From the NCBI GenBank assembly GCA_963695855.1, contig CAVOHZ010000010.1, positions 1,024,001 through 1,088,000 on the forward strand: DNA of 64,000 bases. Direction: 5' to 3'. Position 1 is the stretch's first letter. Every line of letters begins with the position of its first letter. The position numbers and the translations under genes were made by a program. Shown here in pieces: positions 1,839 through 32,503 of this stretch. Below the pieces are notes generated by a model that worked only from the letters and a program-made list of their open reading frames with translations, had not been told where the DNA came from and did not search any database. This stretch comes from an uncultured Nitrososphaerales archaeon. Its GTDB lineage: Archaea; Thermoproteota; Nitrososphaeria; Nitrososphaerales; Nitrososphaeraceae.

Positions 1839-1969
1839 TATATTGTTCAGTCGATATCTATCATATTTTTTAATATTAATACATATAGAATTTGAGCAAT
1901 TTTAGATGATATAAACAGTAAGCAGTAATTGATACAAGAATATAAGAACGAATCAGGAATTCACAATAT

Positions 1970-2299: not shown

Positions 2300-2301
2300 A
2301 A

Positions 2302-2338
2302 TTAGGCCACACTAATTAGGTTGAACTAATATATAAAT
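2302..2338 (-). promoter_or_regulatory. Two tandem TTAG-N6-CTAA palindromes immediately downstream of a TATA box
   Basis: ttag-gccaca-ctaa (2302-2315) and ttag-gttgaa-ctaa (2316-2329) lie between the wHTH start codon and TTTATATA on the minus strand (about 2330-2337). Confidence 0.6.
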
Positions 2339-2368
2339 GTTAATTAAAACCTATTATATAAAAAACAA

Positions 2369-14741: not shown

Positions 14742-15749
14742 ATGCATGATTTTTTTATTGACAGGATAATAAAAATCAAAAATCAAGAAGAACTCTTATC
14801 AATGATAGTTGAAAAATCAAAGTTTGGCGGTGGAAGTATTAGGGGAGTTCAGACCTTAGAAATTGAAGGAGGAAATGCTGTGAATGTAGCTTTTTGTCTT
14901 GCCAAATTAGGACTTGATGTACATCTGTTCACAATAGCAGACAACATAGGAAAAAAGATCTTGCTAAATTTATTTAAAGAATTAAAGAATGTAAAATTAC
15001 GTGTATTTTCTGGCAGACCTGGATATACTACTTCATTGGAATTTTTCAATTCATCAAGTAACGAATTGGAAGCTAATATCATGATTAGCGATGTTGGAGA
15101 CAATACTGACTTCGGACCAGATAGATTTTGCAGATCTACAGAAAAAAATGTTCTGGAAGCTGCTGATGCAGTAATTGTCTTGAATTGGGCATCCAATTTA
15201 AAAGGTGCTTCGCTTTTAGAATATGTTTTTAAAAATTCGCCTAATGCGTTTCATTTTATGGATCCTGCAGATATAAAGAGCAGAACAAAAGAATTTTGTT
15301 CATTATTGCGAGAACGTGCGGACATAATTGATATCTTGAGTTTAAATGAAAATGAATGTAATTCATTGCTTTTAGAATTAAATTATGGAGATCTAATATT
15401 AAAAAACTATTATGAAAGTAAAGAAATTAAATTGGCAGCAAAAACACTTGCAAAGAACCTAAAAATATCTATTGACTTGCATACTAAAAATGGATCGGTT
15501 TTTTCAGATGGAAAGGATATTTTTTTTGTCAAGTCATGGAGAGATATAATTATAAAAAGTTTGACCGGAGCTGGAGATTCATGGGATGCAGCAGATATAC
15601 TAGGACATCTATCAGGCCTTAATCCAAACGAACGATTATTTTTTGCTAATATATTTGCTGCTTTATATATATCCCAAGAAGATAGACGATTAATAACATT
15701 GGATAATGTTATCCAATTTTATAATAAGCTATATAAAATTACATCATAA
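14742..15749 (+). CDS. PfkB/ribokinase-family carbohydrate kinase
   Basis: GGNAVNVAFCLAKLG, SLNENE and LTGAGDSWDA. Confidence 0.9.
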   Translation: MHDFFIDRIIKIKNQEELLSMIVEKSKFGGGSIRGVQTLEIEGGNAVNVAFCLAKLGLDVHLFTIADNIGKKILLNLFKELKNVKLRVFSGRPGYTTSLEFFNSSSNELEANIMISDVGDNTDFGPDRFCRSTEKNVLEAADAVIVLNWASNLKGASLLEYVFKNSPNAFHFMDPADIKSRTKEFCSLLRERADIIDILSLNENECNSLLLELNYGDLILKNYYESKEIKLAAKTLAKNLKISIDLHTKNGSVFSDGKDIFFVKSWRDIIIKSLTGAGDSWDAADILGHLSGLNPNERLFFANIFAALYISQEDRRLITLDNVIQFYNKLYKITS

Positions 15750-15899: not shown

Positions 15900-16778
15900 T
15901 TATTTTGAAAATGCTGTTTTTGTCACTAATTCTTCTATTTTTTTGTTAATATCCAATGTAACCTTCAATAAATCAGGCGTCCATCCACGTTTTTTAATAA
16001 ATGTGGACAATGCCTTTGTATCTTTTGGCAGACATGCACCTTCAAATGGCTTTCCTGCCATTGTTCCATATTTACCTATACGTTTATCTAATGACACTCC
16101 AAGGCTTACAGCCTTATCATCAATCGCTAATTCTTTGCAGAGCATGCCGATTTCGTTAAAGAATGAAATCTTCAATGACAAGAAACAATTGGAAGTATAT
16201 TTTATCATTTCAGCTGCCGCAAAGCTCGTTACGATAATCTTTTCAGTTAAAGGCTTGTAAATTTCTTGTAATAACTTCGAGCTACCTGCAAACTCTTCTC
16301 CAATAATAATTCGGTCGGGAACAAAAAAATCCTCATAGGCAGTATCCTGTCTTAGAAATTCCGGATTATAACATATATTGTAGTTTTTACCGCGTTGTAA
16401 TCTACAGTGTTTATCCATATAATCAACAACAACCTCTTTCATTGTTCCAGGTAACATTGTACTTCTAAATACTATCGAAGTCTCTCTGCCATTTTCTTTA
16501 TAATTTAATGCATCTGTTATAGAAAATAAAGCAGATTTTACTTGTGATAAATCCTGCTCATCATCATCTCCTGTTGGGGTATTCACACAGACAAAAGTAA
16601 TTTCACCATGTCCTAATGCTTCTTTAACATTCTTTGCAATCTGATATCCTTCTTTCTTTAATGTATCCAACCTAGTTTTAGAAATATCATAAAATAGTAC
16701 ATCATGGCCCAATTTACTAAATCCCTTGCCAGTTGCAGATCCCACAACACCAGAACCTATTATTGAAATTTTTACCAT
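15900..16778 (-). CDS. UDP-glucose/GDP-mannose dehydrogenase family protein (short form without the C-terminal domain)
   Basis: GSGVVG Rossmann motif, CVNTP, RSTMLPGT, NPEFLRQ, AEMIKY, KISFFNE and the catalytic Cys in GACLPKD. Confidence 0.93.
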   Translation of the reverse strand: MVKISIIGSGVVGSATGKGFSKLGHDVLFYDISKTRLDTLKKEGYQIAKNVKEALGHGEITFVCVNTPTGDDDEQDLSQVKSALFSITDALNYKENGRETSIVFRSTMLPGTMKEVVVDYMDKHCRLQRGKNYNICYNPEFLRQDTAYEDFFVPDRIIIGEEFAGSSKLLQEIYKPLTEKIIVTSFAAAEMIKYTSNCFLSLKISFFNEIGMLCKELAIDDKAVSLGVSLDKRIGKYGTMAGKPFEGACLPKDTKALSTFIKKRGWTPDLLKVTLDINKKIEELVTKTAFSK

Positions 16779-17033
16779 TATTAATTTCGCAACCCTCTAT
16801 ATACAAAAATCCATTTAAATAATCTGGATATATAAGTACTACGATCTCTTTTTATCCTAAATAGTTAGAAGGAATTCTTTTATAAATTGTTCTATAAAAT
16901 AATAATATAAATATCGATATAACAAATATGAGAAAAAAGATACGAAGGCATTTTTTTCATATTTCTATCATGAAAAATTTTTCGATCTACATATAAATTA
17001 GAATTGGTTATAATAAGAAATAAGAAACAATAG

Positions 17034-18491
17034 ATGTACAGGCTAGTAGATAGTAGAATACCAGAAGAAATTACGATTATTACGGTAATTGTAGCTTTAT
17101 CTGTACTTCTCATATTTTCAATACTTCTTACTTTTTCTCCCGGATTATTTAATCACGTTTCAATTGTAAAACCGATTGAAACATTTATTCTCAAGATATC
17201 TGAAGGTGTAGGTTTTGCCGCTATCACTTATTATCAGATCATATGGATATACATACCATTAGGATTAATAGGGTTATGGCGATGGAGTATATGGCTATTC
17301 AAAAAATCATCTTCACTACTTTATTATCCCATTAGTAACTGTAATGATGAACATCGCCATAAATATAGCATAATTACTCCTGTATACAATGAAGACCCCG
17401 CTATTTTTCAAGATGCGATAGAATCGTGGATTCAAAATAAACCAGATGAGATCATTGGTGTTATAGATCATAATGACAAGAAATGTATCGAGGTCTTTCA
17501 GAGAATATCAATAGATAGACCATTCATGAAACTCATTGTTATCGAAAAACCTGGCAAGAGACCTGCTTTAGCAGAGGGTATTAGAGAAGCAAGAAACAAG
17601 ATAGTTGCTCTAGTAGACAGTGATACAATATGGGAAAAAGATATAAGAAATTCAATATTATCGCCATTTGAAGATCCCACAATAGGAGGCGTAACCACAA
17701 GGCAACATCCTATTGAAAGACGAACAATCTGGCAAAAGATAACTGATATCTTGTGGGATATGAGAAATTATTATGATTTACCAGCGCAGACTGCAATGGG
17801 TCAAGCATTATCTTGTTTATCTGGAAGAACTTCACTATATAGAAAGGATATCATTGAAGGAAGTTTGGATGAATTTCTGAATGAGATAGTGCTAGAAAGA
17901 AGGAAAGAGTCTGGAGAAGATAAATGTCTTACAAGAATAGTTCATAAAAAGGGTTGGAAAACATATTACCAGAGCAATGCAGTAATATATTCTTACGCTG
18001 CTCCTGATTTCAAGACATTTTGGAGACAAAGGCTAAGATGGTCAAGAAATAGTCACAATTCAGATTTAGTTAGTTTATGGGACGGTTGGGCATGGAAACA
18101 TCCGTTTTTGGCATTTCATATTATTGATAGATTTATCTCTATTTTTACTCTATTTTTTGGTCCTATCTTCTTCGGAGTAGCACTTTTTATGAACCAATAC
18201 ATATTAGCACTTTCAATATTGGCATTATGGATGGTAGGAAGAGCAATAAAAATAATACCGCATCTTAAACGCTATCCCAAGGATATAACACTATTACCAA
18301 TATACGTTGTGATTAATTTTATCAGTGCGTTCGTCAAGCTTTATGCACTTGTAACAATCAGAGATCAAAAATGGATAAGGTCTAAGAATAGAAAAATTGG
18401 AACGTCACAGTTAAAAAATATAAAAAATTTAATATTGACCTCTGAAATAATTAGTTGTTTAATTTTTGTAGTAATTTACATTATAAAATAA
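17034..18491 (+). CDS. Processive membrane GT2 synthase (hyaluronan synthase/Cps3S/NodC-like)
   Basis: PVYNED, GKR, VDSD, CLSGRTSLYR, GEDKCLT and QRLRWSRN (QxxRW), with flanking TM helices. Confidence 0.9.
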   Translation: MYRLVDSRIPEEITIITVIVALSVLLIFSILLTFSPGLFNHVSIVKPIETFILKISEGVGFAAITYYQIIWIYIPLGLIGLWRWSIWLFKKSSSLLYYPISNCNDEHRHKYSIITPVYNEDPAIFQDAIESWIQNKPDEIIGVIDHNDKKCIEVFQRISIDRPFMKLIVIEKPGKRPALAEGIREARNKIVALVDSDTIWEKDIRNSILSPFEDPTIGGVTTRQHPIERRTIWQKITDILWDMRNYYDLPAQTAMGQALSCLSGRTSLYRKDIIEGSLDEFLNEIVLERRKESGEDKCLTRIVHKKGWKTYYQSNAVIYSYAAPDFKTFWRQRLRWSRNSHNSDLVSLWDGWAWKHPFLAFHIIDRFISIFTLFFGPIFFGVALFMNQYILALSILALWMVGRAIKIIPHLKRYPKDITLLPIYVVINFISAFVKLYALVTIRDQKWIRSKNRKIGTSQLKNIKNLILTSEIISCLIFVVIYIIK

Positions 18492-18588
18492 ATTTCAAAA
18501 GACCGCTAACGAGTTTAAAAAGCAAAAAGAAGAGAATTTCATTACAATTCGGTATAGCTTTTATATTTCAAAAATAATTTAATATAGA

Positions 18589-18798
18589 ATGGGCAGGATA
18601 AACAAGGGTATAAAGTGCAGTGTTCAAGGCTGTGAAGAGGATGCCGAAAGGTCGATGAGTGAAAGCAAAGGCATGATGGCTTCAGATTTAAGTATTATTT
18701 CTTCGAGCAAGAGAGTATACCTATGCAGAAATCACTATAAAGAATGGAAAAAAGCTACCAAAGAAGATCGTGAAAATGAAAGGGCCAGATGGGGATAA
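18589..18798 (+). CDS. Small zinc-binding protein upstream of thrS
   Basis: CSVQGC...YLCRNHYKEWKK, with a TATA-like TTTATA upstream. Confidence 0.75.
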   Translation: MGRINKGIKCSVQGCEEDAERSMSESKGMMASDLSIISSSKRVYLCRNHYKEWKKATKEDRENERARWG

Positions 18799-18828
18799 AA
18801 AGATAGAGATTTAGAAGGTTTCCAGAAT

Positions 18829-20733
18829 ATGCGTTTACTGCAATTACATGCTGACTTTATTGAATACACACCTATTTCAAAGGAACTTAAAGATGCAGAA
18901 GATGAAATAAAACTAGAAACAAAGAGATTAGATAATTTAGTCGTAGCCTTTGTCTGCATAGAAAAATATGATGACAGGCAGATCATTGACAAAGCCCTGA
19001 ATGAGATAAAAAATTATTTAGAAAATATTAAAGTCAACAGATTATTAATATATCCCTATGCACATTTAAGTTCTGATTTAGCTTCGCCAAAAAATGCTTT
19101 TGAATTCATTATAGAACTTGAGAAATTAGCTAAAAAGATCATTAACAATGTAGAAAGAGCTCCTTTTGGTTGGACAAAATCGCTGAATATAAGTGTAAAA
19201 GGTCATCCACTTGCAGAAAATTTTAAAATCATTGACAAAAGTCAAGACAAAATAGGGACAGAAGTTTCTGATCGTTCCCATGTACATGAAATAGAGGTTG
19301 TATCGTCTGCTTTAAAATTTGAAGAAAAACAAGAATCAACATGGTTCATACTAGATATGGATGGAAATTTGATTCCTTTGGACAAGTTCAACTATAATAA
19401 TGATGGTAATTTTAAGAAACTTATAGATTATGAAACCGCCAAAAGAAGAATTGTGGATGAACAACCTCCTCATGTTGGATTGATGAGAAAAATGGGTATA
19501 GCAGATTACGAATCTGCATCTGATCCAGGAAATATTAGATTCTATCCAAAAGGTAGATTGATGAAATCTTTGATTGAACAATATGTAACCAAAAAAGTCC
19601 TTGAATATGGAGGAATTGAGGTAGAAACTCCTATCATGTATGATACCAAACACCCATCTATGGAGAGTTATTTTAACCGCTTTCCTGCGAGACAATATAA
19701 TATTTTATCGGATAATAAAACATTATTTCTTCGATTTGCAGCATGTTTTGGTCAATTTTTAATGGCCAAGGATTTTCATATTACTTATAAAAATCTTCCA
19801 CTAAAACTTTACGAATTAACTAGATATAGTTTTAGAAGAGAAAAAAGCGGGGAATTAGTAGGATTAAGGAGACTTAGGGCATTTAGTATGCCAGACTGTC
19901 ATGCATTTTGTAAAGATATGGAACAATCAAAGGAAGAATTCCTAAAAAGATTGGACTTGTCTATAGATGTGATATCTGCTTTCAACTTGAAAATAGAGGA
20001 AGACATAGAGATGGCAATCAGATTCACAGAACCGTTTTATATTGAGAATAGAGATTTTATTTTACAAATCCTAAAAAAATTTGGAAAACCAATACTTGTA
20101 GAAATGTGGAAGGAAAGATTCTTCTATTTTGTTTTGAAGTGGGAATTTAATTACATCGATAATTTGGGAAAGGCAGCGGCCCTATCTACTGATCAAATTG
20201 ATGTTGAAAATGGCAAAAGATACAATATTGAATTCGTTGACGAAGATGGAACAAAGAAGAATCCTATAATTTTACATAATTCTCCGAGTGGAGCTGTCGA
20301 AAGAGTATTGTATGCTCTATTAGAAAAAGCTGCAAAAATTATGCATAAGGGAGAAAGACCAGCATTTCCATTATGGTTAACGCATACTCAGGTAAGAATT
20401 ATTCCCATAAAAAAAAATCATGTTGAAAAATCGGAGGAAATCGAAGAGATTTTTGCCAAAAATCAGATAAGGGCCGATATAGATGATAGGGAAGAGTCTG
20501 TTGGAAAAAGAATAAGGGAAGCAGAAACTGAGTGGATTCCATTTATCATAGTGATAGGAGATAGGGAAGTTGAAACTTCTATGGTGGTTGTAAGGGATCG
20601 TGCCAGCAGCAATCAATATGAATCCAACCTAGACTTACTTATAAATAAAATCAAGATAGAGATACAAGGTAAGCCGTTTATGCCATTGAACTTACCGAAA
20701 TATCTATCAAAGCGACCTCAAATTATGACATAA
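18829..20733 (+). CDS. thrS: Threonine--tRNA ligase (archaeal, with N-terminal editing domain)
   Basis: MRLLQLHAD, YPYAHLSS, RAPFGWTK, LRFAACFGQF, RLRAFSMPDCH and the anticodon-binding C-terminus. Confidence 0.97.
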   Translation: MRLLQLHADFIEYTPISKELKDAEDEIKLETKRLDNLVVAFVCIEKYDDRQIIDKALNEIKNYLENIKVNRLLIYPYAHLSSDLASPKNAFEFIIELEKLAKKIINNVERAPFGWTKSLNISVKGHPLAENFKIIDKSQDKIGTEVSDRSHVHEIEVVSSALKFEEKQESTWFILDMDGNLIPLDKFNYNNDGNFKKLIDYETAKRRIVDEQPPHVGLMRKMGIADYESASDPGNIRFYPKGRLMKSLIEQYVTKKVLEYGGIEVETPIMYDTKHPSMESYFNRFPARQYNILSDNKTLFLRFAACFGQFLMAKDFHITYKNLPLKLYELTRYSFRREKSGELVGLRRLRAFSMPDCHAFCKDMEQSKEEFLKRLDLSIDVISAFNLKIEEDIEMAIRFTEPFYIENRDFILQILKKFGKPILVEMWKERFFYFVLKWEFNYIDNLGKAAALSTDQIDVENGKRYNIEFVDEDGTKKNPIILHNSPSGAVERVLYALLEKAAKIMHKGERPAFPLWLTHTQVRIIPIKKNHVEKSEEIEEIFAKNQIRADIDDREESVGKRIREAETEWIPFIIVIGDREVETSMVVVRDRASSNQYESNLDLLINKIKIEIQGKPFMPLNLPKYLSKRPQIMT

Positions 20734-20820
20734 ATATTTTTTAAATTTTTGAATTTTTATTTATTTATTTTTCTAATATGGAAACAAATAATAAAAATAG
20801 ATTTATGTGACCATGGAAAT

Positions 20821-22116
20821 CTATCCAGATAGGATCAATTGACTTGCAGTAACTGGAACCTTAGTTGTATTGGTTGACTGTGTGGCATTACCATAGACAG
20901 ATTGATACGCGTTTCTAACTATATCAAAAAATTTTGTGGTAAATATTTTGCTATCAGTAACGTTAATCAGGTTAAAGTTTTGGACCTGATGAGAATCTAC
21001 TCGCCATTGCCAAAATGCAGAACCCCAAACGTGCAGATTTTTAAAAGTTGCAACCATAAGATCCGCGTCGGTCTGGTTAATACTACTGAATGTTTCATTG
21101 ATAAATGTAATAATCTCTCCTTCTTCATCAATTATTTTATCTCGTTTTACATTGTTCCATTCACCTATGTAAAGCGGAACGTTTGCAAGACCGGCAGCTT
21201 GAACGAAGTTACCGAGTCTAGATTCCTGATAAGTATTTCCCTGTGGCAATCCATAAACACTTATTTTGAATATTACGTTTGTGGTGTTTGCAGGTGCCAT
21301 TTTTGCCAAGTTAATCGGATTAAGTTCTATAGGACTTTGTAAAGAGACAGGAATACTCATACTATATGCTAAAGTTTTAGTAGTACTCTTTCTTAGAAAA
21401 TCTGTCATGAAGGTATTGTATTTACCTATCTTTGACCATTGAGTTTTATCATGTACTTGAGGTTCACTTAAAATTTCATATCCAATCGTACTTTTATGAT
21501 TGTCAACGGTATCAACTATCTTTTTAAAATATTCTGTTTGCATAGTCCATGCATCCTTTCCATCCTTATCATGAACGTTTCTGTCCCACCAATTTGACCA
21601 CCATACTTTAGCAGTAGGATATTTAGTTCCTCCTCCACTACCATAAAAAAATGCAAAATCACCTTCAAATAATGAAAAGGGAAAACCAGTTCCTCTTTGG
21701 GGGTTCAGGTATGAAGAAGTATGAAACTGGTGATTATCATATAATACATGTATGTTATATTTGTCTGCTGTGGTTGCAACTGTTTTTAATTCTTCGATAA
21801 ACTGTACTGGATTTTTAGCGTATGCCTCCCAAAAAACCAAAAAACGAACATGATTCATACCTGATGAAGATAAAATCTTGAAACTTTCTTCAAAGTAATT
21901 TGGCGGTAAATCGTTGTCTACATCACGTGCTTGGGAGGTACGTGTATAGTATCCATGCATATCTACACCATTGAAAGGAGGCCCGTTATTTTCTTTATAT
22001 ATGGGTTGCTGAGCTTCTATCGGCAATGGCTTCGTTTGAAAAATATTTAAATTAAATACAAGTAGAATAGAAAAAGATAGTAGTATAAACACATGTTTAG
22101 ATTTATTTACTGACAA
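20821..22116 (-). CDS. Secreted clan GH-A (GH5/cellulase-like) glycoside hydrolase
   Basis: Signal peptide, NHVRF, LYDNHQF, acid/base YEILSEP, nucleophile YIGEW and FWQW. Confidence 0.8.
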   Translation of the reverse strand: MSVNKSKHVFILLSFSILLVFNLNIFQTKPLPIEAQQPIYKENNGPPFNGVDMHGYYTRTSQARDVDNDLPPNYFEESFKILSSSGMNHVRFLVFWEAYAKNPVQFIEELKTVATTADKYNIHVLYDNHQFHTSSYLNPQRGTGFPFSLFEGDFAFFYGSGGGTKYPTAKVWWSNWWDRNVHDKDGKDAWTMQTEYFKKIVDTVDNHKSTIGYEILSEPQVHDKTQWSKIGKYNTFMTDFLRKSTTKTLAYSMSIPVSLQSPIELNPINLAKMAPANTTNVIFKISVYGLPQGNTYQESRLGNFVQAAGLANVPLYIGEWNNVKRDKIIDEEGEIITFINETFSSINQTDADLMVATFKNLHVWGSAFWQWRVDSHQVQNFNLINVTDSKIFTTKFFDIVRNAYQSVYGNATQSTNTTKVPVTASQLILSG

Positions 22117-22274
22117 TAATATTTCAGATTATACTTAGTAGACTTTTTTTATATATGTATCCCTGCAATTACATTTTTTTCTATAAATATTTTATGGGAA
22201 AATAATAGCGAAAAACCTGATTAACAATTGTAACGTCATTTATATAGAAGACTACTTTTAAATTAGTAACACAA

Positions 22275-24152
22275 TTGCGTTATCAACTAATTGTTAGTCT
22301 AGTACATTTTTCTTTGTTTTTTTCTGTACTAGTTTTAGCGTTTAATTTTTTATTTTTGGAATCAATGGCAGCCAACCAAAATGAAGTGAATGAACAAAGA
22401 GGCATAGATAATATTTGTTTGAAATATGACAACATCACAAAAACAATAATAGTTTGTGATGACAATGTAGAGATTCCTACGATATTTTCTTTTTTTAATA
22501 ATTCAAATATCCTAGAAAGCATTGGAAACAAAGAATGGTTGTTAAGATCTAATATTCTAGTATTAGAAAATGGTACATTAATTATTGATGGTTCGAAATC
22601 TAAAGTTATAAAAATAGCTTCCAATTATTCAAGCAATATACCTTATTCCATCACATCAAGAGGAAATTTAATAATAGATAATACTAGAATAACTTCGTGG
22701 AATTCTACAAGTGATTCCCAACCTGTTGTTAGCTCTCCTGAAACCGTTAGACCTTATATCTTGACCTTTTGGGATTCTTCTGGAAAGACAAATATTACAA
22801 ATTCCTACCTAGAAAATTTAGGATATAAAGGTTACCTAGGAACAGATGGAATAACATATTTTTCTGGTAAAGGGAGTTTAATTAGCAATAATACAATATC
22901 TGGAAATTATTTGGGTTTACATTTGATGAATAATATTTCTGATATTGCAATTGAGAATAATGACATATCAAAAAGCAATTTTGAGGCTATTAAATTAGAC
23001 ACCAAAACAAACAATATTAAAGTTTTTGATAACACGATACATGAGAATAATTTACATGCAATCTCATGTATAAGAGGTTGCAATTCAGTGGATATCAAAA
23101 ATAATGTTTTAGAAAATAATATTGGTATTGGAATACTGGTAGACAAACAAGCAAAGAAGATAATTATTGAAAATAACAAGATAAAATCCAATACTATGGG
23201 TATAATGATAGCAGAGTCAGAAGATAATAGTATCAATAACAATATCATTGATAAAAACGGTAATGGTATTTTTCTAAAAAAAACTGGTGGTAATTTAATA
23301 ACAAAAAATAACATTACGGCAAGTAATAACTATGGTATAAATATTTATTCAAATTCTTCTTTAAATACGATTGAAAATAATAACATCCGAAAATCAATGA
23401 ATAGTGGAATAAATATAGCAGATTATGAAACAAAAAATAATAAATTTGCTGGAAATGTAATTGAAGGTGGATTAAATCATGGTATTAAATTGGATAGAAC
23501 TTTCAAGAACAATTTTGAATCCAATCTAGTAGATAAAAATAAGTATGGTGACTACTATATAAAATTATCAAAGGACAGTATCCTAATGAATACGTACTTT
23601 AATAAAACTTCTATTTTATTCTTTGACAAGAAGAGTAATCTCAAGATAGTTAATATGGATAATAAATTGTTAGACGGTAATAATGTTACCAATGTTGCGT
23701 ATCCAAATAACAATACAGTCATTATGTTACCCATTAAAAAATTTACCAAACTGACAACTATTGACATGTATGTTATTCCTAATTTATCTCATGTAAATAT
23801 TTCATCAATTAACAATGATTTTTCCGAAAATAAGGATTATAAAAAATGGAACGCTGTCTTTGCGGAGCCAAAAATGCAGACAAAATTTATTGTAGAGGGG
23901 TTCGATTCTGGCAGTCAATTTCTTTTAAAAACAAATGAAACAGTTTCTGAGCTGGTTTCGGTTGACAAAAGAAATAATATGCAATTTTCTTTTATTAATG
24001 ACGGATTATCATATACTTTCAAAATTGAAGCGACCAAAACTCCTATGTTAATCACGATATTAATTTTGTCAGTCCTGATTGGCGTTTCAGCTGGAATTTT
24101 CTTTTTATTGAGAAGAAAAAGGATGATTAAGGATAACAATGTAAAAAGATAA
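22275..24152 (+). CDS. Secreted, C-terminally membrane-anchored right-handed beta-helix protein (NosD/AlgG-like)
   Basis: Signal peptide, many IxNNxI repeats, GNLIIDNTRITSWN...RPYI...NLGY segment, and a C-terminal TM helix followed by RRKR. Confidence 0.85.
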   Translation: MRYQLIVSLVHFSLFFSVLVLAFNFLFLESMAANQNEVNEQRGIDNICLKYDNITKTIIVCDDNVEIPTIFSFFNNSNILESIGNKEWLLRSNILVLENGTLIIDGSKSKVIKIASNYSSNIPYSITSRGNLIIDNTRITSWNSTSDSQPVVSSPETVRPYILTFWDSSGKTNITNSYLENLGYKGYLGTDGITYFSGKGSLISNNTISGNYLGLHLMNNISDIAIENNDISKSNFEAIKLDTKTNNIKVFDNTIHENNLHAISCIRGCNSVDIKNNVLENNIGIGILVDKQAKKIIIENNKIKSNTMGIMIAESEDNSINNNIIDKNGNGIFLKKTGGNLITKNNITASNNYGINIYSNSSLNTIENNNIRKSMNSGINIADYETKNNKFAGNVIEGGLNHGIKLDRTFKNNFESNLVDKNKYGDYYIKLSKDSILMNTYFNKTSILFFDKKSNLKIVNMDNKLLDGNNVTNVAYPNNNTVIMLPIKKFTKLTTIDMYVIPNLSHVNISSINNDFSENKDYKKWNAVFAEPKMQTKFIVEGFDSGSQFLLKTNETVSELVSVDKRNNMQFSFINDGLSYTFKIEATKTPMLITILILSVLIGVSAGIFFLLRRKRMIKDNNVKR

Positions 24153-24737
24153 TAAGATTCTCCTAATTTTGTAGTAAAAGATTAATCTTATACGTCTATT
24201 ATATTACGTATTGAATTTTGGATAAAGTATATGTAATTTCAACATCCAGAAATAACTATAGCTATGGATAATAAGTACGAAATACAATACAGTAACATAC
24301 GGCTATAAGAAAGATTAGACTTAAGAGTGGCTAAATATGATGATAGATTTTAGTAATAGAATATTATCTTGTTCTATATATTTTATTGATAGTAATAATG
24401 ATAATAGAATTAGAGATTTAATGATTTCTCCAATCGTTCACAACTATATTCATAGCACCATCATCAAACAATGAACCAGTAGTGGCATTTCTAAAACCAA
24501 TATATCAACAATGATTGTCTCCCAAACTTTTACTGGATTGATATCTTCAAAAGATTCTTCAACGTTACCATCACCATCTGTATCAGAAAAAGGCGGTATT
24601 TCATAAACGACATTTGTCTCATTGTATTTTAAGGCACATTCACCTTTAGGGCCCCAAGTAAACCTTATGGTTGACGATTTTCCCATTGATTAACTTTTAA
24701 TCCCTCATCTTCAGTGTAGTATAAATTGTAAAATTTA

Positions 24738-25037
24738 TCTACTGTAACTACAACTGAAAAGGAGGAAGGAATTATAGAATTATTACGAGAACCTTCTACA
24801 GAACCACAAACAGTCACAGGCGAACAGCCTACGGAAGAAGGTCAAGCACCAACAGATGTTGCACCAACTCCAGAACAAGCAGCATTACCTACGACCTTAG
24901 AAGAAGAACCTAAAGAATAAGAGAAAGAGACAAAAGACGAGCAAGAGAGTAAAGACGAGCAAGAGCCGGAAGAGGAAGAAGAGGAAGAATCAGAAATAGA
25001 AGAGGAAGAGTCTGGAGAATAAGGAGGAAAAGGTTAA
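24738..25037 (+). pseudogene. Remnant of an acidic Glu/Pro/Thr-rich protein tail
   Basis: The frame reads STVTTTEKEEG…EPSTEPQTVTGEQPTEEGQAPTDVAPTPEQAALP…EEEEEEES with in-frame TAA at 24918 and 25020 and no start codon. Confidence 0.55.
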
Positions 25038-25230
25038 ATAAACACATTCAAAATGAATGAATTTGAAATAACTTCCGACAGCAAAAAAGTAAAAACATAA
25101 TTTTTTTTAATTTTAAATATTTTTTAACATATATCGTTTTATTGTAAAAGGTACCAGGAATGTTTGCAATGGTAGTTCAAATTCATAATTAAATTAAATA
25201 GGCCCATCCCATATAACTATATATAATTGA

Positions 25231-25310
25231 ATTTGACGAAAACACTGACTATTTGACGGGTTATTTGACGGAAATTTTGATTAAATGACGATGGTGGCTG
25301 ATTGGTGATT
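25231..25310 (+). repeat. Phased TGAC(G) box array upstream of the HTH-coiled-coil gene
   Basis: TGAC at 25234, 25246, 25254, 25266 and 25286; TGAT at 25278, 25299 and 25306. Spacing is roughly 12/8 bp. Confidence 0.7.
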
Positions 25311-25427
25311 ATAACAATAATACGATGAATTGATTTCTTTAGTTCTTAGAATTAGAAAGATACATATGTATCCCAATTTTGGGATCAAAAATGTATAAAT
25401 AACTCTTTTTTTAACCACGTTTATGTA

Positions 25428-27041
25428 ATGAAGTTACCCACACAGGAGCATATCAAATCAGCTATTATAGACTCATGGATGATGGGCAAGACACGAGATA
25501 AAATAGCATTAGAATTTAATATTAGCACAGGATCGGTTTCTAACATTATACAACAATGGCAGAATAAGATTGGTCTCTTTGATGCAAATGATCTTAGAGA
25601 ATTGGGAGTAGCATTAAAAAAGGCAGGAATATCACCTTTACAATGCGTTGATGGTTTAAGAATCAATAACATACTCAATCAACTATATATTGATGAGGAC
25701 CACCTCAACTATTTTTTAAACAAACTATATAATGAAAGTAAAGAGCAAAGATTACTACCTGCTGATATTGCAAGACTGGCTAAAGTGATAAATGACTATC
25801 CCGATATCTCCTCATTAAATGATCTACCAACATATATCAATAAAAGAAGGCAAGAAAGGATTAAACTAGATAGAGATATATATTACAGAAAAATCGAAAT
25901 CCAAAAATTGGATCATGAAAAAGAAAGGAAGAGAAAAGAGATCCAAGATTTAAAAGATGATTTTGATTCTATTAGAAAAGAGATACAAAATGAGAAAAAA
26001 GATTTTTTGTTATTCAAAAATGTAAAAGATGAACTAAAGAAAAATGGTATAGATATTCAAATTTTAGAGCCTTTAATACATGTTATAAAAATTTTTCAAG
26101 AGATGAACTTCCAACCTCTTACAATCTTCAGTGAATTTTCAGATATAAATGATTACAGAGATCTAGTTGAAAATAAAGAGAGAGGAATAAAGGAACTTGA
26201 ATTACATATCCAAGATTTAAATGCAATAAGTGACAATTATGAAATCAAGATAACATCAAATGAACCTATAGTTCAATCCTTGAAAAGGTTGGAAAACCTT
26301 GGGTTTAATGCTTCTAATATTAAATACCTAGAGAAAACATTTTCAGACGTCTCTAAAAAATTTGGTTTGAATAAAAAGCAAATCAAAATCCGATTCTTTA
26401 GATATATGGATCATTTGTATACTCTTTTAACTCTTGAACAAGATATCTTAGAAAAGACAGATAAGCTTTCTATACTGGACAGTGAAATATCTTCAAAACG
26501 AAAGGTAATAGAAGAATCTCAACCCATTGTATTTTCTATTTTACAAAACTTGGTTAATGCAGGATTAAATGAAAATGATATTCTAATGACTTTAAAAATA
26601 TTTAAAACAGATTTATGTAACAATATGCCTTTTGATATGATAACTTATCTTGAAGCTCTTTCAAAAGATCTAGACAAATATAAAACAGTAAGAGATACTT
26701 TGAAAGGGTTAGATACAAAAGTATTGTTAAAGAAATCTTATATAGAGAAACTGACATTGGTTAAAACTAATTTACAGGTTTTTCTTTTCTCATTAGCTAT
26801 GACCATTTATTTTTACTTTTTTATTTTAAATATACAATTACAAATACAAAAGAAATTTAGAATACTTTTAATATATAACTTTATTTATTTACCTTTAATC
26901 TACATTGTAAAAAGTCCTGAAAAGACTCTGAAATCTAATAAATTCAAAATAAAATCAAAAAATAACAACGACAACAATAATAATAAGAAAAAAGAAATAA
27001 AAAGAAACAATAAACTGCAAAGACAAAAATCAATGGAATAA
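25428..27041 (+). CDS. N-terminal HTH plus long coiled-coil protein with a hydrophobic C-terminal segment
   Basis: TRDKIALEFNISTGSVSNII (HTH), long K/E/L heptad stretches, hydrophobic VFLFSLAMTIYFYFFIL and a Lys-rich tail. Confidence 0.8.
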   Translation: MKLPTQEHIKSAIIDSWMMGKTRDKIALEFNISTGSVSNIIQQWQNKIGLFDANDLRELGVALKKAGISPLQCVDGLRINNILNQLYIDEDHLNYFLNKLYNESKEQRLLPADIARLAKVINDYPDISSLNDLPTYINKRRQERIKLDRDIYYRKIEIQKLDHEKERKRKEIQDLKDDFDSIRKEIQNEKKDFLLFKNVKDELKKNGIDIQILEPLIHVIKIFQEMNFQPLTIFSEFSDINDYRDLVENKERGIKELELHIQDLNAISDNYEIKITSNEPIVQSLKRLENLGFNASNIKYLEKTFSDVSKKFGLNKKQIKIRFFRYMDHLYTLLTLEQDILEKTDKLSILDSEISSKRKVIEESQPIVFSILQNLVNAGLNENDILMTLKIFKTDLCNNMPFDMITYLEALSKDLDKYKTVRDTLKGLDTKVLLKKSYIEKLTLVKTNLQVFLFSLAMTIYFYFFILNIQLQIQKKFRILLIYNFIYLPLIYIVKSPEKTLKSNKFKIKSKNNNDNNNNKKKEIKRNNKLQRQKSME

Positions 27042-27503
27042 AGTAATATTCTGTATCTTGACAATAAATTTCGATAGTTTGTAGAAACAACATAAAAAAT
27101 AATATAATAAATTTAAAATCAATGTTAAGATATTAAATGATCTAACAAAAGTATATGGTGAAAATAAAGAATTTACGAAACAACTTTTAAAATTTAAAAG
27201 CCAAACAAAAAAATACATATCATTAAATTCAAGTAAATAAAAATCAACTGCAATAATATCATTTTATAAATAATAAAATTTAGAATTCTTTACATTTCAT
27301 TAGTCAATAATTTACTTTGATCTATATAAAAGATTTAGAAGGATAATAATTTGTTTTTCATAAATTTTATCAAATTTCAATTTTATCTTTAAATGCGTTG
27401 GTTGTTTTTAAAAGTATTCCATCATAAATATATTAAGGTAACATACCCACATTTACTGTTACACATAGATCGATTGGAACAATTTAAAATCAATATCCAA
27501 CAT

Positions 27504-28283
27504 TTAAATTTCTCTATAAAAAATCTTAAAAGATTCCATAATAATTTCCTTCTTATTATCTTGTTTCCTTCTTTTTAGTACATCTTGCCATTCATTGGTA
27601 TAAGCACAAGTAACATCATCTACAGAATTATAGGAAAAAGCCAAAATGTACTTGTATTTCTTTGACCAATTTTTCTCATAGTAATGAGGATGGTTTAAAG
27701 AGATAGGATAGGCTAACGTAGAATCAATATGTATCCATTTGCCATCAATCAATGCTTCATTCCAACAATGATCTAGATAATCTTGTACAATTCTTGTTTC
27801 CACAAATTGTGAATTTAAAATTGCCCCAAATAGCATTGACCATTCACTGCATCTACCTATTCTGTTATCTGCTATTCTTTTTATTTCGCCATATCTTGGA
27901 AATACTATTTTTGAATTACATTTCAGACATTCATAAACTTCACTCATTCTTAGCTTCCAAGAATTACCTTTGATTATGCTAAAATGCAAAGGTATGTTGC
28001 AATTTTGGCATTTGATGTTTTTGCTGATGTCGCTACTATTCATCCATTTCATATAATCTTGCTTAAACCAATCAAGAAGTGGTTTTAAAATTTGTATGTT
28101 ATTATTATTTTCTTTGCTTATTGTTATTATCTCTTGTTTAATTTTTGATGGAATAAGATGATTAACATAAGCAAGAACTTTTTTGTCTTTGTATTGTCTT
28201 GCTACATTTTTATATAATATAAAAGAATCTTTTGTATAAGGAAAACCAAAGGTATTTCTGCTAAATTTATTGATTTTAAACAT
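27504..28283 (-). CDS. Peptide:N-glycanase (PNG1/NGLY1-like) transglutaminase-fold protein
   Basis: LLDWFKQDYMKW, CQNC and CLKC Zn pairs, FPRY, GRCSEW, DHCWNE, WIHID, YEKNWSKKYKYILAFS and VDDVT are colinear with the eukaryotic PNGase core. The ATG at 28283 is preferred to 28397. Confidence 0.82.
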   Translation of the reverse strand: MFKINKFSRNTFGFPYTKDSFILYKNVARQYKDKKVLAYVNHLIPSKIKQEIITISKENNNNIQILKPLLDWFKQDYMKWMNSSDISKNIKCQNCNIPLHFSIIKGNSWKLRMSEVYECLKCNSKIVFPRYGEIKRIADNRIGRCSEWSMLFGAILNSQFVETRIVQDYLDHCWNEALIDGKWIHIDSTLAYPISLNHPHYYEKNWSKKYKYILAFSYNSVDDVTCAYTNEWQDVLKRRKQDNKKEIIMESFKIFYREI

Positions 28284-28445
28284 AATTATAATAATATATA
28301 CTATTTTTCCTGATAAAAGAATTATTGTGAAATATACATCTGGAACAACTAATACCTGATAATTAGAGTATGGATAAAGAATATAGTAGTTGGTCATATT
28401 AGATGTTGAATTACAAGGATTGTAGGGTGCTGTTAAGTTAAGAGC

Positions 28446-28943
28446 CTATCCCAAAATTATCCTCCTGTAAACAATTATACTATTTGCTAACTGTACAAGA
28501 CCCAGATAGTTCTCATCCTTCTTTTCATACCTTGTAAATAATTTCCTAAATCTGTTATGCCATGAATTTGTTCTCTCTACAACCCATCTTCTTGTAGGAT
28601 GTTTCTTGTTGAGTTTCTTTTCTTCTCTTCTGTGTCGTATATGTGGGATGTATCCCCTTTTGACCATTTCTTGTTCTACTTCTTTGGAATGATATGCTTT
28701 ATCAAGGCATAGATTCTGCTTTTTCTTCTTCTTCTTGTTATTGTTGTTGTTTCTGTATTTTGTTATCGATGATGATGACGATGGTCTTTTGATAACAATA
28801 TTATCAATTGTATTTGTTGCAACGGTAACATCGTGAGTATTGGCTGATGTTATAAAAGTAGAAAGAGGAATACCATCTTTATCTGTTAGAATATGTCTTT
28901 TGCTTCCTAATTTACTCCTATCTGTAGGATTATGACCAGTCAT
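28446..28943 (-). CDS. IS5 transposase, C-terminal DDE ORF
   Basis: NPTDRSKLGSKRHILTDKDGIPL, ANTHD, CLDKAY and RWVVERTNSWHNRFRKL. Confidence 0.93.
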   Translation of the reverse strand: MTGHNPTDRSKLGSKRHILTDKDGIPLSTFITSANTHDVTVATNTIDNIVIKRPSSSSSITKYRNNNNNKKKKKKQNLCLDKAYHSKEVEQEMVKRGYIPHIRHRREEKKLNKKHPTRRWVVERTNSWHNRFRKLFTRYEKKDENYLGLVQLANSIIVYRRIILG

Positions 28944-29304
28944 CGCCCCCTAAAGGAGATTTTACTGATATGCTGTCAAGTGATTGCCAGTTCCATTTTA
29001 TTCCTCTCGTGTTATCGTATATTTTTAGTAATCTCGTCCATAATTTGTCAAATAATCCTGATTGTCTCCATTCCTGAAATCTTCTGTGGCACGTTGAACC
29101 AGAACCATATTCCTTGGGTAACATTTTCCATTGACATCCGATCCTCAAGACAAACAGGATACCATCAAGTACTTTTCTATAAGGAACAATTGGTCTACCT
29201 ATGGTATTATCTGGTTTCTCATCTGGTAAAATATTTTTTATTTCATACCAAAGGTCATCAGGAATACGTGTAATGGTTCTAACATATTTTTTACTCTTAC
29301 TCAA
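28930..29304 (-). CDS. IS5 transposase, N-terminal ORF
   Basis: IPDDLW…GRP…GILFVLRIGCQWKMLP..YGSGSTCHRRFQEW…SLDS. Confidence 0.93.
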   Translation of the reverse strand: MSKSKKYVRTITRIPDDLWYEIKNILPDEKPDNTIGRPIVPYRKVLDGILFVLRIGCQWKMLPKEYGSGSTCHRRFQEWRQSGLFDKLWTRLLKIYDNTRGIKWNWQSLDSISVKSPLGGDDWS

Positions 29305-29386
29305 ACATTATCAGATATGATAGGAAACCAACGAGCTATATTCCTATCTATTTTTGGGATAGGCTCTTAATATCATATCAAATACA

Positions 29387-30718
29387 TTATGATTTAGAAA
29401 TTTTAAATACTTTGCCGTTTTTTGTATTGGAGGCGATCACAAATAAATCTCCATCTGTTGGATCTATCTTTATGTCTGTAATAATACCAAATCCTGTACC
29501 CAATATCGCATCATTAATTTCTGAGGGAGTATTAACTATTCTATCAGCCAATGGTCCAGTCAATTGTAATCCGGTTCTAGTAGAATTAAGATCAAAATGA
29601 AGCAATGTGCCGTTTTTTACACCGCCTACTAACACGTCATCTTTATATTCATCGCCTAATGTGTCTGTATGAATAAAAGCAATTGTGGTGGGAGCCATGG
29701 TTTGATTCCATGTTAGAGCTGGATCATAATATTTGCCTTTATTATTAAATGTAATTAGCTTGTTTCTATCAAAATCTTGACCAGTCATACTCTTATATAA
29801 ATTAGGAGTTCCTAATACTTGTCTCCATCCGCTATTAAAGCCAGGTTTAATAATATTGATTTCATCACCATAATGAGAACCATTTTCTGTGTCCCATAAA
29901 TATCCTGTAATACTATCAAATCCAATTCCAAAACTGTTTCGAATACCATATCCATAATATTTGTCTAGTAGACCTAAATTACCCAAACTGAAGCCGTCGT
30001 TGACAGTATCCCCATCGGGTGTAATTCTTAATACACCTCCTCTACCATCTGGAAGAGATGTTCCTTCAAGATTTTGGGCAATAGTATCTCCGCTGGGATC
30101 TTTGATTCTATTAAGATCACCCATAACAAGATACAAATTTCCATCTGGTCCAATTCGCAATACCCCGCCATTATGAGATGGTCCTGGAGTGAATGGTAAA
30201 TCCAAAAGCAGCACCGGATTCACTAGCTTTCCATCAATAAAGTCATATCTATAAAGTTTATTTCCTAAAATATTACCATCGTCCTGACCTTCTGTTTCAG
30301 TAGCAAAAAGAAAAACATAAGAACGAATTAAAGAACCATCATCTTCTGAAAATTTTCCCGATTTAGATAAATTCAAATAAGCAATTCCTAAAAGACCTCT
30401 TTCACTCTCCGATGCAACATTCAGATCCAATAGTTGAGTTACTTGTCCATTAGTTATTCTTTTTACTATACCTGTATTCTTTTCTATTAATAAAAAGTCA
30501 TCGTTTCCAATAATTTCCATACCTATTGGAAAATTCAGATCATCTATAATCATTTCAGCTTTTAAATTGGGATCAGTTAAAATTGGATTAATATCTTTTT
30601 TTGATTTCTTCTTTGATTGAGCATCAATATCATCAAGAGTTATTGATAAAAGAAACATACCAGCAAATATGAAAATAGTAAAAGAAATTTTTTCAATATT
30701 ATTATTTAATAGAGTCAT
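29387..30718 (-). CDS. Secreted PQQ-dependent glucose/sorbosone (aldose sugar) dehydrogenase
   Basis: ERGLLGIA, HNGGVLRIGPDGNLY, YGIRNSFGIGFD, ENG..GDEIN and GFNSGW. Confidence 0.92.
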   Translation of the reverse strand: MTLLNNNIEKISFTIFIFAGMFLLSITLDDIDAQSKKKSKKDINPILTDPNLKAEMIIDDLNFPIGMEIIGNDDFLLIEKNTGIVKRITNGQVTQLLDLNVASESERGLLGIAYLNLSKSGKFSEDDGSLIRSYVFLFATETEGQDDGNILGNKLYRYDFIDGKLVNPVLLLDLPFTPGPSHNGGVLRIGPDGNLYLVMGDLNRIKDPSGDTIAQNLEGTSLPDGRGGVLRITPDGDTVNDGFSLGNLGLLDKYYGYGIRNSFGIGFDSITGYLWDTENGSHYGDEINIIKPGFNSGWRQVLGTPNLYKSMTGQDFDRNKLITFNNKGKYYDPALTWNQTMAPTTIAFIHTDTLGDEYKDDVLVGGVKNGTLLHFDLNSTRTGLQLTGPLADRIVNTPSEINDAILGTGFGIITDIKIDPTDGDLFVIASNTKNGKVFKISKS

Positions 30719-30879
30719 ATGGTCAAAATATTGTCAAGTATATTTGAATCTATTCGAAGATATAAATGAAGATTATGGAGAAGATCTGTTTGAATCCGCA
30801 GAATAAAATTCCCAAACAAGTTTATATTATGTTGTATTATAAAAATTAAAGAAATATTTTTTATTTATTGTGCGATATT

Positions 30880-32433: not shown

Positions 32434-32503
32434 ATAATTTTATGATTATATATGCTCAAAATGAGGTATATTCGTCACATAGTGAGAATAAATGTAATCA
32501 GAT

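Follow-up and report, generated by a model that had tools for sequence, protein, structure and literature searches.

A putative uronic-acid exopolysaccharide locus of Nitrososphaeraceae with homology to bacterial GT2-beta-helix fusions

Bacterial alginate biosynthesis, as in Pseudomonas and Azotobacter (AlgD, Alg8/Alg44, AlgG, and AlgL), combines a 6-dehydrogenase and a GT2 polymerase with an extracytoplasmic beta-helix protein of the AlgG family and a polymer-cleaving enzyme. To our knowledge, the cleaving enzymes of alginate systems are lyases, polyuronide cleavage is not a known activity of GH5 enzymes, and no alginate-like polymer of this kind has been described in archaea. In hyaluronan systems of the hasA-hasB and Chlorella virus type (Class I hyaluronan synthases, HAS), a membrane GT2 is accompanied by an adjacent dehydrogenase gene, and we know of no such system with an AlgG-type domain. 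The UDP-glucose dehydrogenases (UGDHs) bind UDP through their C-terminal domain. In cellulose operons, BcsZ and RBcel1 are trimming endoglycanases. The brown-algal pathway pairs beta-helix proteins of the epimerase family (ManC5-E) with short GDP-mannose dehydrogenases; those of Saccharina are active at 315-320 aa and carry GxGxVG and CLPKD / GGxCLPKDV motifs, according to PMC4782291. According to PMC11468063, the algal synthase is a putative GT2 mannuronan synthase that is not Alg8-like, and the greatest similarity reported for the algal dehydrogenases (40%) is to a Woesebacteria protein.

The locus described here shares parts with the alginate and hyaluronan systems. It lies in a 64,000-nucleotide stretch of DNA from an uncultured Nitrososphaerales archaeon (the window), in which the five genes of the preliminary description were all found as it had placed them:

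15900-16778, minus strand: short nucleotide-sugar 6-dehydrogenase, 292 aa, NAD-binding and central domains only
16779-17033: divergent intergenic region between dehydrogenase and GT2, 255 bp, promoters presumed
17034-18491, plus strand: processive membrane-integrated GT2 synthase, 485 aa, hyaluronan-synthase-like fold
18829-20733, plus strand: thrS, threonyl-tRNA synthetase of the archaeal type with editing domain (NF003068, 793 bits)
20821-22116, minus strand: divergent GH5-like retaining glycoside hydrolase, secreted or anchored, 431 aa
22275-24152, plus strand: AlgG-like right-handed beta-helix surface protein, 625 aa
24153-29386: insert of ~5.2 kb found in this genome only, with an HTH/transposase-like ORF, a transglutaminase-like gene, and a DDE transposase fragment (Pfam)
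29387-30718, minus strand: PQQ-type glucose/sorbosone dehydrogenase-like gene (GSDH; Pfam), possible neighborhood extension
30880-32433, minus strand: GT-C PMT_2-like glycosyltransferase (Pfam), possible neighborhood extension
32504-33307, minus strand: small Dpm1-like GT2 (Pfam), possible neighborhood extension (whole block 29387-33307)

The five genes are real, as their order is kept in 17/17 fetched loci of the same genus and orthologs are present in 57 public loci. Of these genes, thrS has a housekeeping function; it is interleaved with the others in this genus and is probably outside the system, and it does not lie between system genes in arrangement B or arrangement C. The insert cuts the locus off from genes that in close relatives come next after the beta-helix gene: in loci L044 and L045 (proteins 94-97% identical), GSDH and PMT_2 stand ~320 bp beyond it. 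The PMT_2 of the window is also 43% identical (E 2e-142) to the PMT_2 that arrangement C has between its thrS and GH5 genes, and it is possible that GSDH, PMT_2, and the Dpm1-like GT2 belong to the system.

The preliminary description had compared the dehydrogenase and synthase pair with hasAB and cps3DS, which have a UDP-glucose dehydrogenase. The dehydrogenase is not an ordinary UDP-glucose dehydrogenase but a two-domain form that matches PF03721 and PF00984 in Pfam, lacks the C-terminal PF03720, and aligns to TIGR03026 (413 positions) over positions 2-303. This short form is typical of its relatives, as the best 120 homologs all measure 254-320 aa, and the catalytic residues C249, K193, N197, and D253 along with an NPEF motif are invariant across 26 sequences. 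The top profile matches in the PDB were a UGDH (3vtf, 201 bits) and, second, the GDP-mannose dehydrogenase AlgD (1mfz, 192 bits); these nearly equal scores count against a GDP-mannose reading. The best single PDB match is a UGDH. In size class and in its GSGVVG and GACLPKDT motifs, the protein resembles the Saccharina enzymes, although the brown-algal likeness is one of architecture, motifs, and the reported CPR link rather than of aligned sequences.

In fold, membrane topology, and its DxD, E/D-D-K/R-x-LT, and QxxRW motifs, the GT2 is similar to Class I HAS. The motifs DSD (residues 195-197) and QRLRW (332-336) are part of a set, D195-S-D197, E295-D296-K297, and Q332-R333-x-R335-W336, that is invariant in 52 sequences. 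The protein matches Pfam GT2 families and the NodC (106 bits) and PgaC (67 bits) models, with the Alg8 family absent from its NCBIfam matches, and a profile search against the PDB retrieved Chlorella virus HAS (E 2.6e-14), Xenopus HAS1 (7e-10), and chitin synthase (5e-3), with BcsA not among the matches. The top 13 Foldseek matches of its AF2 model (pLDDT 79.7) are all HAS (TM 0.56-0.66), and the match to HAS spans the entire model, as would suit an enzyme that both makes and translocates its polymer. However, pXO1 HasA and NodC are each only ~26% identical to the GT2, and rather than grouping with HasA, the archaeal GT2s and a set of bacterial fusion proteins form their own clade, split from the HasA/NodC group with an SH-aLRT of 100, in trees that took in two HasA-type rows and NodC rows. 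Another GT2 tree gave the same separation, with support of 95/96 and 85/84.

Judged by sequence, these fusions, from CPR and Chloroflexota, are the closest relatives of the archaeal GT2. The best 120 longer GT2 homologs (872-1308 aa) are 40-52% identical to it, and beta-helix Pfam domains are present in 119; the beta-helix part of one fusion aligns with the beta-helix protein of the window at 28% identity (E 5e-21). A homolog of the window dehydrogenase (29-43% identical; 284-344 aa in the 15 ORFs measured) adjoins the fusion in 64/78 bacterial loci, and both the GT2 tree and the dehydrogenase tree place an archaeal clade beside a bacterial one. Three of the four genes are therefore tied by far more than the proximity to which the preliminary description had confined the link between the two pairs. 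The G-x-DPHD motif is kept in 97/120 fusions, which points to a polyuronide. The two versions nonetheless differ in that the bacterial GT2-(LysM)-beta-helix is fused, whereas the archaeal genes are split, divergent, and without LysM, and in that the bacterial neighbor is a BNR_2 propeller (4/6 loci scanned) where the archaeal one is GH5.

The archaeal beta-helix protein carries a signal-like helix at its N-terminus and a membrane anchor at its C-terminus, and it matches PF13229 and PF05048. AlgG was the sole match in a single-sequence PDB search (E 2e-10) and led the profile search (E 3.4e-25 over 310 residues), followed by AlgE4 and NosD; 7 of the 10 sequences listed in the profile result are mannuronan C5-epimerases. 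By these alignments, the protein is a homolog of AlgG, with which the preliminary description had compared it, but epimerization of the AlgG type is not supported, as neither DPHD nor DPH occurs in any of 27 archaeal orthologs. No ORF longer than 150 aa in the genome contains G[LIVMF]DPH[DNS]. The motif, kept by algal epimerases and most of the bacterial fusions, has been lost from the archaeal protein. The hydrolase likewise departs from bacterial alginate systems in being a GH5 enzyme rather than a lyase. This secreted clan GH-A protein has no Pfam match itself, but 31/39 aligned relatives match PF00150 (GH5), and the top Foldseek matches of its AF2 model (pLDDT 89.2) are GH5 endoglycoceramidases and endoglucanases (E 8e-12). 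Both catalytic Glu residues, E218 and E319, are conserved.

Of 154 Nitrososphaeraceae genomes, 60 have the GT2 and 57 the short dehydrogenase; all 57 fall inside the GT2-positive set with an identical genus pattern. Co-occurrence of these two genes is thus strict in this family. Their divergent pairing is kept in 54/57 loci, and upstream DNA in the remaining 3 extends for at most ~240 bp. A GH5 gene is found no more than 8 kb away in 44/57 loci over three differing gene orders; other genera of the family include 5 loci in which the two pairs stand side by side without thrS and 15 in which GH5 directly adjoins the dehydrogenase. The two pairs are thereby linked by more than proximity. The genus g28, which has the most GT2-positive genomes (25/25), has no clear ortholog of the beta-helix protein, with weak paralog matches in 8/25.

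The most economical interpretation of these sequences is that the product contains uronic acid. On balance, we favor the view that the locus is an archaeal split version of a cross-domain module, consisting of a short dehydrogenase, a HAS-fold GT2, and an AlgG-like beta-helix protein, with a polymannuronate- or alginate-like product. Counting against this view are the missing Alg8 match, the missing DPHD motif of the archaeal beta-helix, the g28 genomes without its clear ortholog, and a GH5 family that is multi-copy and also found in genomes lacking the GT2. A hyaluronan-like or chito-uronan polymer is less likely, and we regard it as doubtful; here, the GT2 would use UDP-GlcNAc, alone or alternating with UDP-GlcA, and the dehydrogenase would supply UDP-uronic acid in the manner of hasAB. 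The characterized relatives of the GT2 (HAS and NodC) do use UDP-GlcNAc, which counts against mannuronate, and this agrees with the structural and profile matches to HAS, with the UGDH match of the dehydrogenase, and with a Lactococcus plasmid glycosyltransferase of the same superclade that adjoins a full-length nucleotide-sugar dehydrogenase. The separate GT2 clade, a dehydrogenase without the UDP-binding domain, and a fused or linked partner of the AlgG type all argue against it, and the GH5 gene is a further difference from the hasA-hasB type. The analogy to hasAB and cps3DS drawn at the outset is accordingly weak, and of the hyaluronan-, cellubiuronan-, and alginate-like options then considered, the alginate-like one fits best.

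It is more doubtful still that the product is a neutral beta-glycan (chitin-, cellulose-, or mannan-like), with GH5 as a trimming endoglycanase and a dehydrogenase that does not make a uronate donor. The GH5 folds matched by the hydrolase do include endo-beta-1,4-glucanases and RBcel1/Cel5A, its catalytic pair is intact, the GT2 belongs to a NodC/HAS/chitin-synthase-like group, and the epimerase motif is missing from the archaeal beta-helix. However, a dehydrogenase with the full set of C6-oxidation residues co-occurs strictly with the GT2 and adjoins it in both archaea and bacteria, and most bacterial fusions keep DPHD. The least probable of the alternatives, in our estimation, is that the dehydrogenase-GT2 pair alone is the functional unit, and that GH5 and the beta-helix are ordinary surface proteins in a slowly rearranging block with thrS, ferritin, and others. 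In its favor, synteny within the genus is kept just as well for thrS, DHH, ferritin, and pfkB as for the four genes, and in arrangements A and C thrS is no more than 5 kb away; GH5-like genes are multi-copy, with as many as 11 in one genome, and occur also in genomes without the GT2, and beta-helix paralogs are common, with the ortholog not found in g28. This reading is difficult to reconcile with the bacterial fusions, with a GH5 that stays beside the pair across several genera, and with an LSEP motif, in place of the LNEP of the family, in 26/26 locus-linked GH5 orthologs.

For the favored polymannuronate-like product, we infer a pathway in which the cytoplasmic dehydrogenase would use its conserved Cys, Lys, Asn, and Asp to oxidize a nucleotide sugar at C6, most likely converting GDP-mannose to GDP-mannuronate by analogy with the equally short brown-algal enzymes. 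The GT2 would then polymerize the uronate and thread the chain through its own membrane channel, after which the anchored beta-helix protein may bind or handle it outside the cell, without epimerization of the DPHD type, and GH5 may trim or release it. Certain Nitrososphaeraceae genera would in this way form an acidic exopolysaccharide resembling polymannuronate or alginate. The conserved genes described here for soil ammonia-oxidizing archaea are thus probably responsible for an acidic slime polymer similar to alginate.

The five open reading frames considered here lie on low-GC DNA (~31%) from a source genome of 3.55 Mb and 99.9% completeness, and ORF calls, Pfam, and NCBIfam agree with the preliminary description on their places and on their arrangement as two divergent pairs around a housekeeping gene.

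15900-16778, minus strand, nucleotide-sugar dehydrogenase (Pfam and NCBIfam)
17034-18491, plus strand, GT2 synthase, divergent from the dehydrogenase (Pfam and NCBIfam)
18829-20733, plus strand, thrS (Pfam and NCBIfam)
20821-22116, minus strand, secreted GH5-like protein (GH5 by its relatives and a structure model)
22275-24152, plus strand, beta-helix protein anchored in the membrane by its C-terminal end, divergent from the GH5-like gene (Pfam and NCBIfam)

Linkage of the four genes other than thrS, which had been proposed from the window, gains support from rearranged gene orders, from co-occurrence, and from bacterial fusions. Synteny within the genus is uninformative: the order is conserved in 17 of 17 loci, but thrS, ferritin, and further neighbors are just as constant. 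The comparison with other genera covered 57 loci, among which four arrangements were found.

Gene arrangements of the locus in Nitrososphaeraceae (strand in brackets)
A: dehydrogenase (-), GT2 (+), thrS (+), GH5 (-), beta-helix (+); 21 complete loci
B: GH5 (-), beta-helix (+), dehydrogenase (-), GT2 (+), no thrS; 5 loci
C: thrS (-), PMT_2 (-), GH5 (-), dehydrogenase (-), GT2 (+); 15 loci
D: dehydrogenase (-), GT2 (+), PMT_2 (+); 2 loci

The dehydrogenase-GT2 pair was present in 54 of these 57 loci, the other three having almost no upstream DNA, and a GH5 gene lay inside the fetched flanks in 44. A genome-wide search of 154 Nitrososphaeraceae genomes (completeness of at least 85%) detected the GT2 in 60 genomes and its short-dehydrogenase partner in 57, and comparison of the two lists places all 57 within the 60. 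Both genes are present in all genomes of genera g1, g18, g20, g27, and g28, the g28 tallies resting in small part on unpublished genome G145, and in none of those of g19, g21, g22, g24, and g25; the module is thus a fixed feature of several genera of the family that are uncultured. Neither gene was detected in any of the three genomes of this set that are complete in one contig, which may be why the module has been overlooked. At a threshold of E <= 1e-50, clear beta-helix orthologs were detected in 28 genomes, which belong to g1, g18, g20, g27, and g29, and not in g28, and the only g25 match in the beta-helix tally is unpublished genome G099. GH5-like genes occur in 71 of the 154 genomes, and as many as 11 matches are present in one genome. 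The co-occurrence that the preliminary description proposed to test holds for the dehydrogenase and GT2, whereas the GH5 and beta-helix genes are tied to this pair more loosely than its members are to each other. The secreted GH5-like family is enlarged in one genus (genomes G137-G161, up to 11 per genome), and its occurrence also in genomes lacking the GT2 points to a sizeable secreted GH5-like set in these autotrophic archaea.

Other genes accompany the locus. A PQQ-type sorbosone/glucose dehydrogenase-like (GSDH-like) gene, a 517-aa GT-C glycosyltransferase resembling PMT_2, and a Dpm1-like GT2 of only 267 aa are grouped at 29387-33307 in the window. The two closest relatives (loci L044 and L045) have the GSDH-like gene directly after the beta-helix gene (~320 bp), along with PMT_2, and in the source genome these genes are set off from the beta-helix gene by ~5.2 kb of unique DNA (24153-29386) that encodes a 537-aa protein with weak HTH and transposase-HTH matches, a transglutaminase-like protein, and a 165-aa DDE transposase fragment. 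The window PMT_2 is 43% identical to the one between thrS and GH5 in arrangement C, and in other genera PMT_2 accompanies the synthase locus beside GH5 in 15 loci and after GT2 in 2. This PMT_2 and the adjoining Dpm1-like GT2 may have a role in decorating surface proteins or the polymer. Genes for sugar activation are also found nearby: a PfkB kinase (14742-15749), convergent with the dehydrogenase in arrangement A, and, in bacteria, a ROK kinase in a WWE3 locus (L109:1904-2758) and a phosphomannomutase/phosphoglucomutase in a Saccharibacteria locus (L156:9645-11024). Six metatranscriptome runs contain a small share (0.12-0.16) of the sampled words of the window, a figure for the window as a whole.

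The bacterial relatives join two of these genes in one polypeptide. At least 120 longer GT2 homologs were listed (872-1308 aa; CPR phyla and Chloroflexota where named), with GT2 parts 40-52% identical to the window GT2 and far nearer to it than any characterized enzyme; among the 120 listed, beta-helix Pfam domains are present in 119 and the G-x-DPHD motif is kept in 97. The alignment of the fused beta-helix with the separate beta-helix protein of the window takes in the cap region (28%, E 5e-21). Of 78 bacterial loci fetched, 64 have a homolog of the dehydrogenase adjoining the fusion, 29-43% identical to that of the window; those measured (15 ORFs) are 284-344 aa long, and all six scanned with Pfam consist of the N-terminal and central domains alone. 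Woesebacteria are among the CPR groups with such an operon (locus L117). In the GT2 and dehydrogenase trees alike, the archaeal clade stands beside a bacterial one. The fusion, the adjoining dehydrogenase, and these homologies argue, at the level of sequence, that the dehydrogenase, GT2, and beta-helix protein, three of the four genes, are one evolutionary module of which the archaeal locus is a split form. In four of six CPR loci scanned (L133, L156, L163, and L174), the immediate neighbor of the dehydrogenase-fusion pair is a BNR_2 protein (sialidase-like propeller, ~456-464 aa), which may correspond in bacteria to the GH5 of the archaea. The fused beta-helix of WWE3 locus L109 lacks DPHD, and a separate upstream 466-aa beta-helix protein (L109:3356-4756, minus strand) carries YGLDPHDDS, so in some bacteria the motif may come from a second gene.

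The gene paired with the synthase does encode a nucleotide-sugar dehydrogenase, as originally described, although not of the canonical form. The 292-aa protein matches PF03721 (NAD-binding, E 1.3e-33), PF00984 (central domain, E 1.2e-24), and TIGR03026 (237 bits; cut-off, 189.8), with no match to PF03720, the C-terminal nucleotide-sugar-binding domain, and it stops at TIGR03026 position 303 of 413. The missing part could not fit downstream because the end of the next gene is only 150 bp away. It is also not supplied in trans, since the sole PF03720 of the source genome lies within a separate full-length 474-aa dehydrogenase on contig C3, nor is the gene a pseudogene, as orthologs in 54 loci retain the short form at full length (55-98% identity) and the best 120 database homologs are all 254-320 aa and without PF03720. 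Cys249, Lys193, Asn197, Asp253, and an NPEF motif are invariant in 26 sequences, and the catalytic residues align with GGSCFPKD of 3vtf; in UGDHs, residues of this set carry out C6 oxidation. The enzyme is thus a conserved two-domain short form and not a three-domain UDP-glucose or GDP-mannose dehydrogenase. In size, two-domain build, and motifs (GSGVVG at residue 8, GACLPKDT at residue 247), it resembles the short GDP-mannose 6-dehydrogenases of brown algae (about 300-320 aa; GxGxVG and G-x-CLPKD), a likeness of architecture and motifs. Two such enzymes of Saccharina japonica (320 and 315 aa, with GxGxVG and GGxCLPKDV) are reported to have been expressed and assayed (PMC4782291). Against the PDB, the family profile scores similarly with an archaeal UGDH (201 bits) and the Pseudomonas GDP-mannose dehydrogenase AlgD (192 bits), and a literature search on truncated UGDH found nothing relevant. 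A second family member in the source genome (G000:C10:611396-611653; locus L004, ORF 1429-2457, minus strand) has 342 aa, GGHCLPKDT, and a low-complexity insert, and it too apparently lacks the C-terminal domain. Short-dehydrogenase clusters in the ESM Atlas are named for Bathyarchaeota, Actinomycetota, and phages, and these names serve as leads only.

The synthase belongs by sequence to the NodC/HAS group (NodC model, 106 bits; PgaC, 67 bits). Its profile matches Chlorella virus HAS (E 2.6e-14), Xenopus HAS1 (7e-10), and an oomycete chitin synthase (5e-3) in the PDB, with no match to BcsA there. DxD and QxxRW are invariant in the family, the membrane architecture is of the HAS type, and the best 13 Foldseek matches to the AlphaFold model (pLDDT 79.7) are all HAS (TM 0.56-0.66; 475-523 aligned columns), with chitin and cellulose synthases ranking after them. 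Because these matches span essentially the whole model, the protein is presumably a membrane-embedded synthase that exports its own product. It shares catalytic motifs and membrane architecture with class I hyaluronan synthases; however, it does not group with HasA-type enzymes. pXO1 HasA, NodC, and a Lactococcus GT, the last partnered by a full-length dehydrogenase, are each only ~26% identical to it. In trees of 18 and 40 rows these three fall on one side, and on the other the archaeal proteins and the bacterial fusions make up a separate clade; neither tree includes HAS of eukaryotes or viruses, chitin synthase, Cps3S, or Alg8. The phylogeny separates the GT2 from HasA, of which it is not an ortholog. 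The Alg8 family is absent from the NCBIfam matches of the GT2 at E <= 0.01, in a library that may hold no Alg8 model. A Streptomyces plasmid homolog (32% identity) is uninformative, its neighborhood lacking dehydrogenase, GH, and beta-helix genes. "Hyaluronan synthase" clusters in the ESM Atlas come from Actinomycetota, by names that are leads only.

The beta-helix protein is a homolog of AlgG, the periplasmic mannuronan C5-epimerase, with a right-handed beta-helix typical of the epimerase family, and AlgG is the only PDB match of the single sequence (E 2e-10). A 14-sequence profile matches AlgG (4nk8/4nk6) at E 3.4e-25 over positions 62-371 (310 residues), followed by AlgE4 (3.5e-9), NosD, and more mannuronan epimerases. 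Comparison with the AlgG active site, suggested in the preliminary description along with an AlgG-type epimerase role, does not bear out that role in archaea: DPHD of AlgG aligns with K-L-D-T of the window protein, none of 27 archaeal orthologs has DPH, and G[LIVMF]DPH[DNS] occurs in none of the source-genome ORFs longer than 150 aa. The 431-aa hydrolase has no Pfam match of its own, PF00150 (GH5) included; 31 of 39 aligned relatives match PF00150, and so does the Nitrososphaera ortholog (E 2.6e-12). Its AF2 model (pLDDT 89.2) is a clan GH-A (beta/alpha)8 barrel closest in Foldseek to GH5 endoglycoceramidases and endo-beta-1,4-glucanases (E 8e-12, TM ~0.5-0.57). Both catalytic glutamates are retained, E218 nearly invariant and E319 invariant, which we take to be the strand 4 acid/base and the strand 7 nucleophile. 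The acid/base residue stands in Ser-Glu-Pro in all 26 locus-linked orthologs, and the consensus of the wider family is Asn-Glu-Pro.

Taken at the sequence level, the product of the module is most likely a polyuronide. The earlier idea of a uronic-acid polymer gains support, and of the options then offered, the alginate-like one seems to fit best, while the analogy with streptococcal hasAB finds no support in a short-form dehydrogenase and a GT2 outside the HasA/NodC group. Two features point to mannuronan or alginate: a DPHD epimerase domain fused to most of the bacterial synthases, and a GMD-type dehydrogenase. A 2024 survey reports that the protein most like the GMDs of brown algae (40%) is from Woesebacteria, that algal epimerases all have DPHD, and that the algal mannuronan synthase is a still-unidentified GT2 unrelated to Alg8 (PMC11468063). 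In the archaea, the short dehydrogenase would supply GDP-mannuronate, the GT2 would polymerize and export the chain, the beta-helix protein lacking the epimerase motif would handle it outside the cell, and the GH5 would trim or release it; the archaeal product would be unepimerized given the loss of that motif. The alginate-like reading has its weak points: the PDB scores do not tell UGDH from GMD, the GT2 has relatives that use UDP-GlcNAc, a hydrolase stands where known alginate systems have a lyase, and g28 has no beta-helix ortholog. The boldest reading, in which abundant soil ammonia-oxidizing archaea release a polymer like polymannuronate or alginate, built by a HAS-fold GT2 that is not Alg8 and is fed by a short GDP-mannose dehydrogenase, is on balance unlikely though not far-fetched.

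To our knowledge, no synthase-dependent acidic exopolysaccharide has been characterized in archaea. No paper on this locus emerged from literature searches on Nitrososphaera with hyaluronan synthase or with biofilm and cellulose synthase, and one on chitin synthase in Thaumarchaeota found nothing relevant. The locus resembles known kinds of synthase-dependent systems, and its bacterial relatives are uncharacterized. The EPS capacity of Nitrososphaerales is described only in general terms in two reports (PMC7554672, PMC11559005). The GT2 family offers a concrete candidate for a type of mannuronan synthase that has no relation to Alg8, and if the alginate-like reading is true, this family, common to the CPR and Chloroflexota fusions, would be the missing type of mannuronan synthase and the best starting point in the search for the brown-algal enzyme. 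An alginate-like matrix would also matter for the aggregation of soil, for tolerance of desiccation and metals, and for the biofilm life of major nitrifiers.
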